IMG/VR virus record: IMGVR_UViG_3300036770_005890
Direction: 5' to 3' (one strand)
Source of the DNA: a virus
Length of the DNA stretch: 64,000 nt
The notes under the pieces: model-generated
Databases searched by the model: none
Told to the model about the DNA's origin: nothing
Seen by the model: only the letters and a program-made list of their open reading frames with translations
Part shown: positions 14,103-40,615 of the stretch, piece by piece
Layout of the letters: the number at the start of each line of letters is the position of its first letter
How positions within the stretch are numbered: the stretch's first letter is position 1
Program-made: the position numbers and the translations under genes

Positions 14103-14342
14103 TTGATGCGCCTTGCCGGTAGCGATGAGATTTTCTCGGCGCTGGCAGGGCGTTTTGCTGTCAATGGCACAGCACCTGCAGATGATGCGCTGGATGCATT
14201 CTTCCAGACGTATGCGCTATTGAAGTCGAAGGGCTACAGCGACAATGCGGCCGAGCAGGTGGCAACAGATATTGCGCAGGGGCGCGAACCGGCTCCGCAC
14301 GTGACCAAGAGATTCGCGGACATCTATGGCGATCCATCCTGA
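14103..14342 (+). CDS. hypothetical protein
   Basis: 79-aa ORF with TTG-ATG at 14103/14106. Confidence 0.4.
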   Translation: MMRLAGSDEIFSALAGRFAVNGTAPADDALDAFFQTYALLKSKGYSDNAAEQVATDIAQGREPAPHVTKRFADIYGDPS

Positions 14343-15492
14343 AACGATGGCAATAGCCGTTCGAGAGATCGAGCGGTTTGAGGGAATTGAGCTCGAGGCG
14401 TACCTCGACCCAGTGGGGATCCCGACAATCTGCGCTGGATTGACTCGGTATCCAAACGGAACACCGGTCAGGATGGGCGATGTCTGCAAGGGCGATGTCT
14501 GCAGGTCCTACCTGCAGGTGATGCTGGAGAAAGAGTTTCTGCCGAAGCTGGAAGTAATCCCGCGCTGGAATGAGCTCGGGCCGAACCGGCAAGCGGCGCT
14601 GCTGAGTTTTGCTTGGAACCTCGGCGCTTCGTTCTACGGCGCTCCGGGCTTCGAGACGATTAGCCGTGTATTGCGCGAAGGGGCAGCGAGGCCTGAGATC
14701 TATCAGCAGATGAGCAATGCTCTCGAGCTGTATGTCAAGGCAGGCGGCAGGGTGCTGCCAGGGCTGGTAAACCGTCGTAAGGCGGAAGCAAAATTGTGGA
14801 ATGCTGAATCGGATGGGATCATGAAATTCATTGCAACGCAGCAGACTTACTTAAAGAAAGCCACAATCGAGAGTCGGTATTTGTCCGATCTCGGGAAGAG
14901 AAGCTTTGCGGAAGGCGAATCCCTTGCAATCAGTCGAGTGGAAGAGATCCCGGCTGACTCCCATGCCTGGGTCACCTTGAATGGAGGTACGGAAAAGTGG
15001 GTTCTCTTCCTACCTCACTGGCGAGAGGAGACAGCCAAGCCTGGCTTAGCACCAACAACCGCCATCAACTGGGGAGATTTCGGTGCGCGGGTTGGCGAAT
15101 ATATCACCGTTGGCGAAGTGCTTCAGTACGACGCGAGGCGTAAGCCAAAGGCGGGAAGCCAGGAAGAGAAAGAGATCATCAAGGTCTGCAAGGAGTTCGA
15201 TGCCATCCGCAAGAGCTGGGACGGCCCATTGGGTGTGACTAGCGGTTACAGGCCTGAGCCAATCAATCGACAAGTTGGTGGCGTCCCTGGTTCGTACCAC
15301 ACAAAGGGCATGGCGCTCGATATTTATCCGATCGGTGAATCACTCGAGAACTTCCACCGCTGGCTGATTCAACGCTGGAGCGGCGGGTATGGCGATGGGC
15401 GCCCCAAAGGCTTTATCCATATCGACACCAGAAATGGCGGGTGCTTCCACGCACGAGCGGGGGTAAAGCCGTTTACTGTTTGGAATTACTGA
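14326..15492 (+). CDS. two-domain lysin: GH24-type lysozyme N-terminus and peptidase M15-type C-terminus
   Basis: EIERFEGIELEAYLDPVGIPTICAGLT and GLVNRRKAEAKLW (lysozyme). SGYRPEPINRQVGGVPGSYHTKGMALDI and GFIHIDTR (zinc D,D-peptidase type). Confidence 0.75.
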   Translation: MAIHPETMAIAVREIERFEGIELEAYLDPVGIPTICAGLTRYPNGTPVRMGDVCKGDVCRSYLQVMLEKEFLPKLEVIPRWNELGPNRQAALLSFAWNLGASFYGAPGFETISRVLREGAARPEIYQQMSNALELYVKAGGRVLPGLVNRRKAEAKLWNAESDGIMKFIATQQTYLKKATIESRYLSDLGKRSFAEGESLAISRVEEIPADSHAWVTLNGGTEKWVLFLPHWREETAKPGLAPTTAINWGDFGARVGEYITVGEVLQYDARRKPKAGSQEEKEIIKVCKEFDAIRKSWDGPLGVTSGYRPEPINRQVGGVPGSYHTKGMALDIYPIGESLENFHRWLIQRWSGGYGDGRPKGFIHIDTRNGGCFHARAGVKPFTVWNY

Positions 15493-34173: not shown

Positions 34174-34521
34174 ATGGGCCGCAAAGTTCTCGCACCTCCA
34201 GCCAGTCAGCCGGCTTTCTACAGTCAGCCACCCGTTGCTATAGCGGCATCTGATGTTGACTGTTCACTTGGCAACTATTTCACCAAGACAGTCAACGGCG
34301 CTACGACATTCAGTTTCAGTAACGCGCCAGCAGCAAAGGCCTACAGCTTCACGCTGGAGATCACACATACCAGTGGCACGATCACTTGGCCGGCCTCGGT
34401 GAAGTGGCCTGCTGATACGGCGCCAACATTGAACACCGGCAAGACGCACGTCCTGGTGTTTGTGACCGACGATGGCGGTAGCCGCTGGCGAGGCGGCTCT
34501 TTGGTGAATTACGTAACCTAA
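34174..34521 (+). CDS. hypothetical protein
   Basis: 115-aa ORF, last gene of the plus-strand tail block. Confidence 0.45.
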   Translation: MGRKVLAPPASQPAFYSQPPVAIAASDVDCSLGNYFTKTVNGATTFSFSNAPAAKAYSFTLEITHTSGTITWPASVKWPADTAPTLNTGKTHVLVFVTDDGGSRWRGGSLVNYVT

Positions 34522-34533
34522 AACGACGGGAGG

Positions 34534-35133
34534 CTAAACAGGTAGCACGTAGCTGCCGGCATAGGCAGATGGCGTGCTTCTCAGCGTCCCGGTCAGCGCA
34601 CCTGTCCAGTAGGACAGTGCAGGATAAATCGTGCCACCAATGAAGCCTGTATTGGTGAACACTGGGCCGAGGGCTCCGTTCTTGTAAAACGCAAGCTTGC
34701 CTGTTGCTTCATTCCAGACGCACCCGCAGATGTCACCGCTGGTGAATGTAAACGCCGATCCGCTCTGCGATGTGCCGGTGCCTTCGCCGTAGGAGAAGCT
34801 GTTGCCGAGATACATCATGGCCCGCTCCCCCGTGTTGCCGCCGTAGCTCAGGCCGCCATTCCAGTGCGTGGCGTTGAGGATTCCGACAAAACCAGTGCTA
34901 TTGCTCCAGCTGTTGTCGACATTCCATTCAAAGTATTTAGATCCAGTAAAGCCCCCCCAGCGCACGCCTGCCTGGGATTGACTGCTGCCGGTCCCTCCCT
35001 GGTAGCTGCCTGTGCCGAATGCACCTGAACCCTGGACCGCATCGACCGTGGCGACGTGCTGTGTCAAGGTTACTGGAGGCGGCCCGGGCAAAGTACCGGC
35101 TGTCGCCATCAGCATTTGCGAAAGTGGATCCAT
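34534..35133 (-). CDS. SPRY-domain protein
   Basis: KYFEWNVDN...GFVGILNA, GDICGCVWNEATGKLAFYKNGALGPVF and TIYPALSYW fit the SPRY/B30.2 pattern. Confidence 0.6.
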   Translation of the reverse strand: MDPLSQMLMATAGTLPGPPPVTLTQHVATVDAVQGSGAFGTGSYQGGTGSSQSQAGVRWGGFTGSKYFEWNVDNSWSNSTGFVGILNATHWNGGLSYGGNTGERAMMYLGNSFSYGEGTGTSQSGSAFTFTSGDICGCVWNEATGKLAFYKNGALGPVFTNTGFIGGTIYPALSYWTGALTGTLRSTPSAYAGSYVLPV

Positions 35134-35172
35134 AGCAGCTGCAAGTGAGTCGTTGCTGTCGGTATTGCGAGA

Positions 35173-35433
35173 TCAGTCGTTGAGCCAGGGAGCGCGCAGC
35201 CGTTGCTCGCCGCCAAGCAGTTGACTCGCCCCTGTCTGCAGTTCCGGGTCAGGAGGTGATTGGCTGTAGAGCGGCTGATCCGCCTCTGGCTGGCTCTGGT
35301 GCCAGTCCTCGATCGCCACATCCAGGCGCGGCTTGAGGGTCGCCTCGAACTTGCGATCCTGCGCTGCCTTCTGGAGGTGATACCTCCAGCCCTTATCGCC
35401 GAAACGTAGGAGCCACGTCGTTTCGGGCTTCAG
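35173..35433 (-). CDS. cryptic ORF without a canonical start (candidate -1 frameshift extension or CTG-initiated protein)
   Basis: Hand translation: LKPETTWLLRFGDKGWRYHLQKAAQDRKFEATLKPRLDVAIEDWHQSQPEADQPLYSQSPPDPELQTGASQLLGGEQRLRAPWLND. No ATG/GTG/TTG gives more than 48 aa. Confidence 0.3.
   Translation of the reverse strand: MKPETTWLLRFGDKGWRYHLQKAAQDRKFEATLKPRLDVAIEDWHQSQPEADQPLYSQSPPDPELQTGASQLLGGEQRLRAPWLND
35399..35426 (-). promoter_or_regulatory. stem-loop 9 nt downstream of the heptamer
   Basis: CCGAAACG (12-nt loop) CGTTTCGG. A second perfect 8-bp hairpin lies at 35371..35389. Confidence 0.3.
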
Positions 35434-35567
35434 CGCTTTGGGAACAGCGACTGCAGTCCCCGCAGCAGCAGTTGAATCCAGCTATTGCTGCGAATCGGCA
35501 GCAGAGCAATGATCTCACTGCCGGCAGCAATGATGATCGCAATAATTGCAGCAGTGGTGGGATCCAT
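35430..35567 (-). CDS. 45-aa single-pass membrane peptide (below track cutoff)
   Basis: MDPTTAAIIAIIIAAGSEIIALLPIRSNSWIQLLLRGLQSLFPKR. TACACT lies 21 nt upstream of the ATG. Confidence 0.4.
   Translation of the reverse strand: MDPTTAAIIAIIIAAGSEIIALLPIRSNSWIQLLLRGLQSLFPKR
35436..35442 (-). promoter_or_regulatory. candidate -1 frameshift heptamer C CCA AAG
   Basis: Fits X XXY YYZ in the zero frame of the 45-aa ORF, two codons before its TGA. Confidence 0.3.
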
Positions 35568-35588
35568 AAAGCAGGCGATGCTCTCTTC

Positions 35589-35594
35589 AGTGTA
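35589..35594 (-). promoter_or_regulatory. -10-like hexamer TACACT (TACACTGAAGAGAGC), 21 nt before ATG 35567
   Basis: Supports the 45-aa membrane peptide as a real gene start. Confidence 0.35.
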
Positions 35595-35614
35595 AGAACA
35601 TCGCCCGCCTTGGC

Positions 35615-35806
35615 CTACAGAATGCGTGCTGCGGCGGACTGAAGCGACGCCGCGATCGAAGCCCTGGGGAATCCCGAGGATTCCAGGAAGTCCGAGAAGG
35701 CATGCACCAAGGCATGAATCTCCTCGGTTTCGACGCGAACCGTGATGGTCTGGCAGTACTCCTCATCAGGGTAGCTGCGGGTCAGTGATAGCCGGTAGGC
35801 GTCCAT
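35615..35806 (-). CDS. 63-aa hypothetical protein
   Basis: Internal ATG of track ORF 35615..36019 (MDAYRLSLTRSYPDEEYCQT...). Its ATG overlaps the TGA of the upstream micro-ORF. Confidence 0.4.
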   Translation of the reverse strand: MDAYRLSLTRSYPDEEYCQTITVRVETEEIHALVHAFSDFLESSGFPRASIAASLQSAAARIL

Positions 35807-35958
35807 CACTGCTCGAGCTGCGGTTTGATGAAGGTCTCGAGCACGTCCTGCACGAAGGCGATCACGGTCGGCGGGGTCTTGCCGCAGGGGGCGACGTAGT
35901 TCTCGGTGAACCACTGCTTGTAGTGAGCGTCGATCTGTTCGGGAGTCGGCAGGTCCAC
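35806..35958 (-). CDS. 50-aa hypothetical protein (below track cutoff)
   Basis: Begins with GTG. Hand translation VDLPTPEQIDAHYKQWFTENYVAPCGKTPPTVIAFVQDVLETFIKPQLEQ. CATAAT lies 23 nt upstream. Confidence 0.4.
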   Translation of the reverse strand: MDLPTPEQIDAHYKQWFTENYVAPCGKTPPTVIAFVQDVLETFIKPQLEQ

Positions 35959-35981
35959 GGCTAGCGCGATGAGTCGGGCTC

Positions 35982-35987
35982 ATTATG
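35982..35987 (-). promoter_or_regulatory. -10-like hexamer CATAAT, 23 nt before GTG 35958
   Basis: Divergent region shared with TAGCCT at 36036. Confidence 0.35.
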
Positions 35988-36035
35988 GGCCTGATCAGGC
36001 GGGCCGCAAGCCTTGGCAAGCGGTTCCTGACTGCC

Positions 36036-36041
36036 TAGCCT
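36036..36041 (+). promoter_or_regulatory. -10-like hexamer TAGCCT, 23 nt before ATG 36065
   Basis: Fixed-distance set. Confidence 0.35.
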
Positions 36042-36064
36042 TGCAAAGCACGATGCGATGTGAA

Positions 36065-36301
36065 ATGAAAACGGCAGCAGCTGTTCAGCAGGATCAGAAC
36101 CGAGCGGACTACGTGGAGTATCTCTACGAGTTGTTTGATCGCAGCAATCCAAGCGTTGAGCACTGCTTCACGTACACAGGACTGCACCGGATGTACGTTG
36201 AGCGCGTCGGCGCTGATGTAGCCGAAGCCCGGCTGATGTGGTTCGACGAAGAAGAGGAATCGATCCGCGCTTCTGATGCTGAATTTTCCGCAGCGGCCTA
36301 G
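36065..36301 (+). CDS. hypothetical protein
   Basis: ATG at 36065 (MKTAAAVQQDQN...), 23 nt after TAGCCT. The upstream part of the track ORF is probably not translated. Confidence 0.4.
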   Translation: MKTAAAVQQDQNRADYVEYLYELFDRSNPSVEHCFTYTGLHRMYVERVGADVAEARLMWFDEEEESIRASDAEFSAAA

Positions 36302-39242: not shown

Positions 39243-39364
39243 TTCTGCAGAGGATCTGTCGTGTGTCTTAGGTGGTACTCGTTTCTGGAATACCGTCGAC
39301 CTACTGCTGCGTAGCCCCAGCAGGGGTCGCCGCAAGTGTGCCTCCTGCAGCGCGTGTGTCAACC

Positions 39365-40615
39365 ATGGTTTTGAGAATCGGATACGCCCGCACCTCGACG
39401 GCCCAAGAGGAGCAGGACAAGTCGATCGAGGGCCAGGTCGTCGAGCTCAAGCGTGCCGGCTGTGAGCGGGTCATTTCCGAGCGGAGGTCAGCTTTCAAGG
39501 GCAACGCGCGTCCGGGCTGGGATGAGCTTTGGGCCCTGGTTGGTCGCGGCGGCGTCGACGAGGTCGTCGTCGCGGATCAGTCTCGCCTGAGCCGCTCGGG
39601 GGATGACATGGCATTCCTCGAGCTCTGTGCCGCACGCGGCACCAAGGTGGTGGCCCTGGTCGGCGGCACCATTGAAACCGAGTCGATCGGCGGCTTCGTG
39701 CAGGCCGGGATGATGAGCGTGTTCTCGCAGATGCAGAGCCGGCTCACGGCAGCCAAGGTCAGAGACGGTCTGAGGCGACGCAAGGCCCAGGGGTACTACG
39801 CCTGCGGCAAGGTTCCCTTTGGATACAGCTACGACGGGCAGTACGTCGTGCCATGCCCGGATCACTGGGATGCCGCGCGCCAGATGTGGGATGAGCTGAT
39901 GGAGCTCGACTTCAATGTCTCTGGCTGGATCGCCAAGACGCAATCGAAGTGGACCCCGAAGGGCGTCAAAAGCTGGATTGCCAATCCGATGTTGCGCGGC
40001 ATCGTGCGCGGCGAGCACGGCGGGACCAAACCGTTGATCAGCTGGCAGGAATGGGCGGAAGCTGAAAACAAGCTCAAGGCCCGATCAAACATGCGGGGTA
40101 GAGCTGCTCACACCGTGCATCTGTTCACCGGACTGGTGCGCTGCGAGAGCTGCGGCAAGTCCCTGCACAACATCCGCGATCGGGCGGTCCCTCGCCTGAA
40201 ATGCCACAACCGCATTTGCGCTCGCTACGGGCAGGGCATCCGCGTCGAGGTGGTGCGCAGGAAGGTGATTGATGCGTTGACCACCAAGGCAGCGGAGCTC
40301 GCCAGCGCAGCTATCAGCGAAAAGAAGGAGCCAGCGGAAGCCGGACCAATTCGCAATCAGATCTCAGCGCTGCAGGCAGCGCAGGCTGCTGGAGTCGATG
40401 GATTAGAGGACAAGTTGGCGGCGCTGCATCGTCAGCTGCAGGCGCTGCAGCAAGTGGATAGCTCAGCTCGCTATGAGCTTCTGGTCGAGCTGTTTGCAGA
40501 CCGGCGGACGCTTGAACTGGCGACGGACGAGGAACTGCGGGCGGTGATCCTGCAATTCGTCAGCGAACTTGTCTGGCCCGGAGGACTGGAGAGCCTGGAG
40601 ATCACGCTGCGCTAA
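39365..40615 (+). CDS. int: large serine recombinase (integrase)
   Basis: MVLRIGYARTSTAQ catalytic Ser region, VVADQSRLSRS, recombinase domain, Cys-rich zinc ribbon CESCGKSLH...LKCHNRIC, C-terminal coiled coil. Confidence 0.85.
   Translation: MVLRIGYARTSTAQEEQDKSIEGQVVELKRAGCERVISERRSAFKGNARPGWDELWALVGRGGVDEVVVADQSRLSRSGDDMAFLELCAARGTKVVALVGGTIETESIGGFVQAGMMSVFSQMQSRLTAAKVRDGLRRRKAQGYYACGKVPFGYSYDGQYVVPCPDHWDAARQMWDELMELDFNVSGWIAKTQSKWTPKGVKSWIANPMLRGIVRGEHGGTKPLISWQEWAEAENKLKARSNMRGRAAHTVHLFTGLVRCESCGKSLHNIRDRAVPRLKCHNRICARYGQGIRVEVVRRKVIDALTTKAAELASAAISEKKEPAEAGPIRNQISALQAAQAAGVDGLEDKLAALHRQLQALQQVDSSARYELLVELFADRRTLELATDEELRAVILQFVSELVWPGGLESLEITLR

Follow-up and report, generated by a model that had tools for sequence, protein, structure and literature searches.

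A predicted -1 frameshift in a small holin-like gene, conserved among cyanophages, and its place in a probably mosaic minus-strand gene cluster

The lambda S105/S107 holin and antiholin arise from a dual-start motif, and two-product holin genes are known. Programmed -1 frameshifting on heptamers of the form X_XXA_AAG occurs in the phage tail assembly chaperone genes G/GT and in Escherichia coli dnaX. In mycobacteriophage Ms6, Gp1 is a small protein whose gene lies upstream of and overlaps lysA, and it binds the endolysin N-terminus. To our knowledge, lysis control in cyanophages is largely uncharacterised, and we know of no holin firmly assigned in the siphovirus-type lineages treated below; a search of the literature on frameshifting in holin or lysis genes and on cyanophage lysis gave nothing relevant. 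Here we describe a cluster of five open reading frames (ORFs) on the minus strand of an uncultured phage, at positions 34,534 to 35,987 of a 64,000-nucleotide stretch of DNA (the window), which is the reverse strand of bases 181-64180 of the 82,418-bp IMG/VR virus record IMGVR_UViG_3300036770_005890 (estimated completeness, 96%). Within the cluster, a gene for a 45-residue membrane peptide is followed by an 87-codon ORF in the -1 frame. We propose, tentatively and at somewhat less than an even chance, that many cyanophages, from 30-kb siphoviruses to 85-kb phages, program a conserved -1 frameshift within the final codons of a tiny holin-like gene. A second membrane protein, extended at its C-terminus, would result, to regulate lysis or to dock the endolysin. 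The frameshift would be a recoding counterpart of the holin/antiholin dual start, nearly always missed by gene callers (three called proteins versus 201 IMG/VR loci). We treat the phage as a cyanophage because the isolate phages matched by the -1 ORF are all Synechococcus phages.

The membrane peptide is encoded at 35430..35567 (minus strand), starts with ATG and matches phrog_22542 (E 1.5e-8). It has one hydrophobic segment, with a Kyte-Doolittle maximum of 2.44 over the 19 residues 7-25, and a basic C-terminus (...RGLQSLFPKR); small size, a transmembrane segment and a charged tail are features of holins. A slippery heptamer, C_CCA_AAG, lies in the 0 frame at 35436..35442 (minus strand), one codon ahead of the TGA stop (35432..35430). 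Across this heptamer the -1 frame stays open, from 35481 to 35173; its stretch from 35436 on has no ATG, GTG or TTG before a GTG at 35319. The window thus has the layout expected of a -1 frameshift site, a 0-frame X_XXY_YYZ heptamer that the open -1 frame spans. The -1-frame ORF itself occupies 35173..35436 (minus strand) and, joined to residues 1-44 of the peptide, would give a trans-frame product of 131 residues.

To place this junction among its relatives, we collected 201 IMG/VR relatives of the -1 domain with a domain profile and fetched 80 of these loci. Together with three Synechococcus phage isolates and the window they make up the 84 loci examined here; 83 of them (the 80 IMG/VR loci, two isolates and the window) were analysed by script and the junction of the third isolate, KBS-S-2A, was read by eye. 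In tblastn searches the -1 ORF matched the Synechococcus siphoviruses KBS-S-2A, S-CBS3 and S-CBS1. In all three it lies between a homologue of the membrane peptide of about 50 residues and the annotated endolysin, after the tail-fibre genes, with an in-frame A_AAA_AAG two codons ahead of the peptide stop. Homologues of the membrane peptide were found by tblastn in 83 of the 84 loci, always immediately upstream of the -1 ORF, and the exception, KBS-S-2A, was confirmed by eye. A tblastn search of 50,697 phage isolate records with the window's own peptide found nothing.

A second ORF is present in the -1 frame in 83/83 scripted loci. Likewise, all 83 carry an in-frame X_XXA_AAR one or two codons ahead of the peptide stop, as does KBS-S-2A. 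The heptamer is A_AAA_AAG in 42 of the scripted loci, C_CCA_AAG in 38, G_GGA_AAG in two and C_CCA_AAA in one, and the 0-frame stop is TGA (46 loci), TAG (20) or TAA (17). Where the slip site encodes proline, the codon is always CCA, which accounts for only 9 of the 122 proline codons (7%) elsewhere in these ORFs; where it encodes Lys-Lys, the codons are always AAA-AAG. The slip site and the frame relation are therefore held beyond what the protein sequence needs, with synonymous positions fixed. Immediately after the 0-frame stop, the entropy at third positions of the -1 frame is 1.08, versus 0.56 and 0.52 at positions 1 and 2. Third codon positions being the most variable there, -1-frame coding is evident directly after the stop. 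The open -1 frame of three loci begins just 13 nucleotides before the end of the stop. An earlier reading of the window, made from its sequence only, had taken the cryptic 87-codon ORF to be recoded, and the -1 frame and slippery heptamer found in all 84 loci bear this out. On this comparative evidence, programmed -1 frameshifting is the single model that fits all loci, and it almost certainly extends the membrane-peptide gene.

The -1 ORF is poorly represented in annotation. Among 5.8 billion protein clusters, it has been called three times, each time with a makeshift start. It is unannotated in the RefSeq record of KBS-S-2A, given an internal ATG start in S-CBS3 and given a TTG start in S-CBS1; the public annotation that misses or truncates it is that of loci L002 (NC_020854.1 6418-6627), L003 (gp22) and L004 (gp23). 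A profile search of the PDB with the -1 domain gave chance-level matches only. The C-terminal half of the domain has weak tblastn matches (E 3e-3 to 0.5) in S-CREM1, S-CRM01, S-B68 and DSL-LC03, which are large T4-like Synechococcus phages, and the domain may reach beyond siphovirus-type lineages.

The partner of the pair in most loci is an endolysin. Among 73 loci with a readable ORF after the -1 ORF, that ORF belongs in 65 to one BLAST-linked set that includes the three annotated endolysins, and in most of these loci the endolysin gene begins within the -1 ORF, typically about 28 nucleotides before its end. The catalytic domains vary, being a Glucosaminidase with a C39-like peptidase, a lysozyme with an M15 peptidase, or a region with no Pfam match. 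The endolysins that were read nevertheless have in common an N-terminal segment of about 60 residues, IRLxDLFRYYKxLxHQxAAIxELE-like, to which no Pfam model matched in the five endolysins scanned. Endolysins with this segment, in loci L005-L084 and L002-L004 (e.g. L005:5257-6384 and L004:3185-4306), are always encoded directly after the -1 ORF. The segment may be the docking partner of the -1 ORF product. In 13 loci (L002:2579-2824, L003:2602-2844, L004:2559-2804 and 10 IMG/VR loci) the membrane peptide is preceded by a protein of about 81 residues with an N-terminal hydrophobic stretch and then a charged, heptad-like segment that is probably a coiled coil. This protein could add a further spanin- or holin-like member to the lysis cassette; the window shows no clear counterpart of it.

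The pair adjoins or overlaps the endolysin gene in most relatives, and the peptide is small, with a single transmembrane segment and a basic tail; for these reasons we infer that the two ORFs form a holin-type lysis-cassette gene with products of 45 and 131 residues. Ribosomes reading straight through would make the 45-residue single-pass membrane peptide, while some ribosomes would slip back one base on C_CCA_AAG, one codon ahead of the stop, and read 87 more codons. The resulting 131-residue protein would join the common membrane anchor to a soluble domain. The short form would be the membrane-lesion (holin-type) component, and the long form, comparable to an antiholin, would either regulate the short form or serve as a docking partner for the endolysin. 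The frequency of slippage would set the ratio of the 45-residue to the 131-residue form.

The window phage departs from this arrangement. Its endolysin, found by tblastn with the S-CBS3 endolysin, is encoded at 14326..15492 on the plus strand (Phage_lysozyme, E 4e-20; Peptidase_M15_3, E 9e-19), 20 kb away from the holin-like gene, and does not have the shared N-terminal segment. The nearest relative, L038, is a complete genome of 85,174 bp with terminal repeats, which also served as the reference for counting codon changes. Its copy of the endolysin is 99% identical and lies about 21 kb from the cluster. Between the window and L038, the membrane peptide differs by nine synonymous and three non-synonymous codons. 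As judged from these sequences, the pair is uncoupled from the endolysin in this lineage, yet still under purifying selection. The endolysin would have moved 20 kb off in the window lineage, without the N-terminal domain common to the adjacent endolysins of the relatives.

Upstream of the pair on the minus strand lie two small genes. orf50 (35806..35958, minus strand, GTG start) encodes a soluble protein of 50 residues, and orf63 (35615..35806, minus strand, ATG start) an acidic protein of 63 residues; the two overlap at a TGATG, sharing the A. A -10-like hexamer, CATAAT (35982..35987, minus strand), lies 24 nucleotides upstream of the orf50 GTG and is identical in L038, and a second one, TACACT (35589..35594, minus strand), lies 22 nucleotides upstream of the membrane-peptide ATG and is conserved in L038. 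A promoter scan of the region found no two-hexamer sigma-70 site, which leaves both hexamers as putative -10 elements. When the coordinates were read directly, both hexamers and all five ORFs stood where the sequence-only reading had placed them. That reading had also split orf50 and orf63 at the TGATG, against a 134-residue track ORF (35615..36019) that merges the orf63 frame with a stretch overlapping orf50. The merged ORF was rejected as a real gene: its frame is interrupted by a stop in L038, and the split is therefore correct. The call for conservation of the small ORFs was answered by mostly synonymous change relative to L038. The orf50 protein is 100% identical, its three differing codons all being synonymous with no non-synonymous change, and of the 12 codons that differ in orf63, 10 are synonymous and two non-synonymous. 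GC content at third codon positions is 0.90 in orf50, 0.75 in orf63 and 0.75 in the -1 ORF. All five ORFs are taken as genuine coding units, in line with the sequence-only reading.

Among 80 related IMG/VR loci, L038 is the sole carrier of orf50 and orf63. A few near relatives have them too: for orf63 there is one more homologue, P0045 (84% identity), and the cluster of orf63 itself is present on 23 contigs, both being called as 63-residue proteins; the Atlas look-alikes of orf63 are small viral hypothetical proteins, which we take as a lead only. Neither protein matched a family in Pfam, PHROGs, NCBIfam or PADLOC, and tblastn against the phage isolate records gave no match for either. The sequence comparisons indicate that orf50 and orf63 are real genes of narrow range. 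Their products would be translationally coupled small soluble proteins, restricted to a lineage of phages of about 82-85 kb.

The last gene of the cluster (34534..35133, minus strand) starts 39 nucleotides after the stop of the -1 ORF and encodes a stand-alone protein of 199 residues. The sequence-only reading had assigned it a SPRY domain, a call that held at the level of the fold but not for the protein itself against Pfam: its score with the SPRY model PF00622 was 22.0 bits (E 1.8e-4, residues 114-177), under the gathering cut-off of 26.3. A five-sequence profile reached the RanBP10 SPRY domain at just E 0.04. An exhaustive profile search gave 35 relatives, many of which have the domain at the extreme C-terminus of proteins of 700-1700 residues with glycine-rich (ALK_LTK_GRD), Big_9 and cadherin-like domains. 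The relative P0010, which matches the family profile at E 2.3e-55, passes the SPRY model at 38.7 bits, and 11 of the 22 aligned family members match SPRY (best E 7.9e-21), providing a transitive link. An AlphaFold2 model of the 199-residue protein, built from the 22-member alignment, had a predicted local distance difference test (pLDDT) score of 90.2. The top PDB matches of this model in Foldseek were all SPRY/B30.2 proteins (Ash2L, TRIM9, RanBP9/10, DDX1 and SPSB2; E 4e-6 to 1e-4, template-modelling score 0.5-0.68), and its BFVD matches were phage proteins named B30.2/SPRY, tail fibre or structural protein. The structural model thus indicates that the 199-residue protein has the SPRY/B30.2 fold. 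Domains with the SPRY and LamG lectin folds are already on record from the tail fibres and virion proteins of phages (Iyer et al. 2021, PMC7824862), and the protein is no new kind of phage protein.

Relatives of the SPRY gene are scarce. The protein had no tblastn match in the phage isolate records, and none of its relatives could be confirmed in scans of IMG/VR (also with P0010), JGI metagenomes or GTDB genomes; the clade is rare. The gene accompanies the membrane-peptide/-1 pair in 0 of the 83 comparison loci (the window being left out), and it is absent from the whole L038 genome, in a search for which the window's own genome was the positive control. In its place, L038 has glycine-rich fibre-like genes convergent with the cluster. 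Because it is missing from the 83 comparison loci and from all of L038, the SPRY gene appears to be a strain-specific accessory in a hypervariable fibre junction. A foreign origin by composition was rejected (GC content 0.585, versus 0.589 for the window). So was descent from a diverged endolysin or endolysin fragment: the protein has no similarity to the endolysins downstream of the pair in relatives and falls in a separate BLAST component. The gene would have been inserted, in this strain specifically, between the pair and the convergent, hypervariable tail-fibre genes. Its product is probably a surface-binding lectin, most likely binding a glycan or protein of the host surface and acting as an accessory adhesin or fibre partner.

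Frameshifting, a role in lysis and the make-up of the cluster can each be questioned. The 87-codon ORF might be translated independently, without a frameshift, to give a separate soluble protein, with ribosomes initiating, or reinitiating after termination, either on the CTG whose last two letters open the TGA stop (CTGA) or on the GTG inside the ORF, at 35319. The stop is indeed overlapped by CTG in 41 of the 83 scripted loci and by TTG in five, and gene callers placed the start internally or upstream in three database entries as well as in S-CBS1 and S-CBS3. However, the overlapping codon is GTA, ATA, TTA or CTA, and hence not NTG, in 37 of the 83, and 47 of the 83 have no ATG, GTG or TTG in the open -1 frame ahead of the conserved residues. 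Moreover, conserved residues, including an invariant tryptophan, lie upstream of every annotated internal start, and a universal heptamer maintained at synonymous sites argues against independent translation as well; we regard it as very unlikely. A different objection would accept the frameshift and deny that the pair is a holin-type lysis component. The product could instead help to export or chaperone the endolysin, serve in the membrane during DNA entry or superinfection exclusion, or target the membrane as a tail-associated factor, and its adjacency to the endolysin would then reflect late-gene order alone. Consistent with this, the pair always follows tail-fibre genes, and it has been kept under purifying selection in the window phage and L038 with the endolysin 20-21 kb off. 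Against it, the overlap of the -1 ORF end and the endolysin start in most loci and the co-variation with the shared N-terminal endolysin domain both point to a functional link with lysis, and the size, single transmembrane segment and basic tail suit small holins. We consider such a non-holin role unlikely.

The third question is whether the five genes belong together. The sequence-only reading had seen in them one undescribed system, and they might indeed form a single functional accessory operon in which the SPRY protein acts with the membrane peptide and its extension, perhaps as a membrane-anchored device for host interaction or superinfection exclusion expressed against the late structural genes. 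All five ORFs run in one direction and lie close together (the TGATG overlap, 47 nucleotides, the frame overlap and 39 nucleotides), no terminator-like site lies between them on the minus strand, and the phage has a serine integrase, so that lysogenic expression of accessory genes (morons) is conceivable. However, the search for synteny of SPRY and membrane-peptide genes that the sequence-only reading had called for came back empty across the comparison loci, and L038, a complete genome, retains the other four ORFs without the SPRY gene. In addition, the conserved partner of the pair is the endolysin, and PADLOC matched no product to a defence-system model, a result that also leaves the suggestion of exclusion unsupported. 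We therefore give little credence to a single operon. The pair is widespread and usually upstream of an endolysin, orf50 and orf63 are confined to a narrow lineage, and the SPRY gene accompanies no other copy of the pair; because of this, we think it fairly likely that the cluster is a mosaic of three unrelated minus-strand units, namely a lineage-specific pair of small genes, a displaced frameshifted holin-like gene and a strain-specific SPRY gene.

Several observations weigh against a frameshifted lysis gene standing apart from its neighbours. The frameshift is deduced by comparing sequences and in no other way. No conserved stimulatory RNA structure was found near the slip site (RNAalifold consensus, -2.4 kcal/mol), and the local fold in the window is no better than that of shuffled sequences (z = -1.09). 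A conserved hairpin 3' of the slip site was accordingly rejected as a candidate, and the nearby 0-frame stop is the sole feature around the slip site common to the loci. No named holin, antiholin or spanin family in Pfam, NCBIfam or the PDB matches either half of the pair, which also favours a non-holin role, and the PHROG families of the pair are labelled 'unknown function'. Since the pair is not adjacent to the endolysin in the window phage or in L038, a role outside lysis is possible. Finally, the SPRY gene follows the pair after only 39 nucleotides and is read in the same direction; it may be co-transcribed with the pair and hence functionally linked to it.

The surroundings of the cluster differ between phages. 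The last tail-fibre-like gene (34174..34521, plus strand, 115 residues) matches phrog_9017 'tail fiber protein' (E 1.5e-15) and, as the sequence-only reading had described, is convergent with the cluster; its stop and that of the SPRY gene are 12 nucleotides apart. In seven relatives (L013, L014, L016, L023-L025 and L080) a homologue of this gene lies upstream of the membrane-peptide gene on the same strand. In L038, three glycine-rich proteins of 314-379 residues (L038:5424-8760, minus strand) replace the 401-residue fibre paralogues and the 115-residue fibre gene of the window; the 314-residue protein, the one scanned, matches Gly_rich_2 (E 5.5e-5). The receptor-binding block is wholly exchanged between the two phages, which are otherwise near-identical. 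On the other side of the cluster, a divergent ORF of 110 residues (35969..36301, plus strand) is matched by relatives from about residue 34 on, and its first 32 codons are poorly conserved in L038. Translation of it probably begins at the ATG at 36065. Homologues of this ORF are present in 17 other loci, and in many of these they lie on the opposite strand just beyond the endolysin, which suggests that the cluster has been inverted or rearranged in the window lineage. About 3.3 kb from the cluster, a large serine recombinase (39272-40615, plus strand; phrog_95 integrase, E 4e-49) is consistent with a temperate lifestyle. The region as a whole had no blastn match in phage records and no match in Rfam.

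The result of note is the conserved pattern indicative of a -1 frameshift, tested against 83 other loci. If true, a frameshift directly upstream of the endolysin would be a second widespread phage recoding event beside that of the tail chaperone. It would also provide a testable holin or lysis-timing candidate for marine and freshwater Synechococcus phages, and it would correct a systematic annotation gap, the -1 ORF being missed in the RefSeq record of KBS-S-2A and cut short in those of S-CBS1 and S-CBS3. Interest in the SPRY gene is more local, the gene being a mark of the hypervariable host-recognition edge and a candidate stand-alone adhesin.

The SPRY protein can be set beside the lectin-fold domains of phage fibres, of which the B30.2/SPRY protein of Ralstonia phage RSL2 is an example (PMC7824862). 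It shares the beta-sandwich fold of SPRY and LamG domains, in its relatives the domain caps the C-terminal end of long proteins that resemble fibres or adhesins, and its gene borders the tail-fibre block. It differs in standing alone at 199 residues, in being encoded on the strand opposite the fibre genes and in scoring under the Pfam cut-off.

The slip site resembles those of G/GT and dnaX. The same class of slippery heptamer (A_AAA_AAG, G_GGA_AAG or C_CCA_AAG) stands in the 0 frame, slippage is predicted to add a longer trans-frame fusion to the short 0-frame product, and the arrangement is kept across distant phages despite sequence divergence. In contrast to those genes, the one described here encodes a membrane peptide beside an endolysin and not a tail chaperone, its 0-frame stop follows within one or two codons, and no conserved downstream hairpin or upstream Shine-Dalgarno-like stimulator was detected. 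With Ms6 Gp1 it has in common a small gene that overlaps the endolysin start, and in the endolysins here an N-terminal segment is conserved whichever catalytic domain is present. Gp1 is neither membrane-anchored nor made by frameshifting, and we liken the two by gene layout alone.

The comparison with lambda S105/S107 extends to what the two products might do. There is no sequence similarity to lambda S, and holin function is attributed to the present pair by inference. The forms predicted here would differ by a C-terminal domain of 87 residues, whereas those of lambda differ by two N-terminal residues; they would arise by -1 frameshifting and not by alternative initiation, and they have one transmembrane segment versus three. 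In both cases, however, a small membrane-protein gene heading a lysis cassette would yield two products that share a membrane segment and differ at one end, and the ratio of the two could set the timing of lysis.

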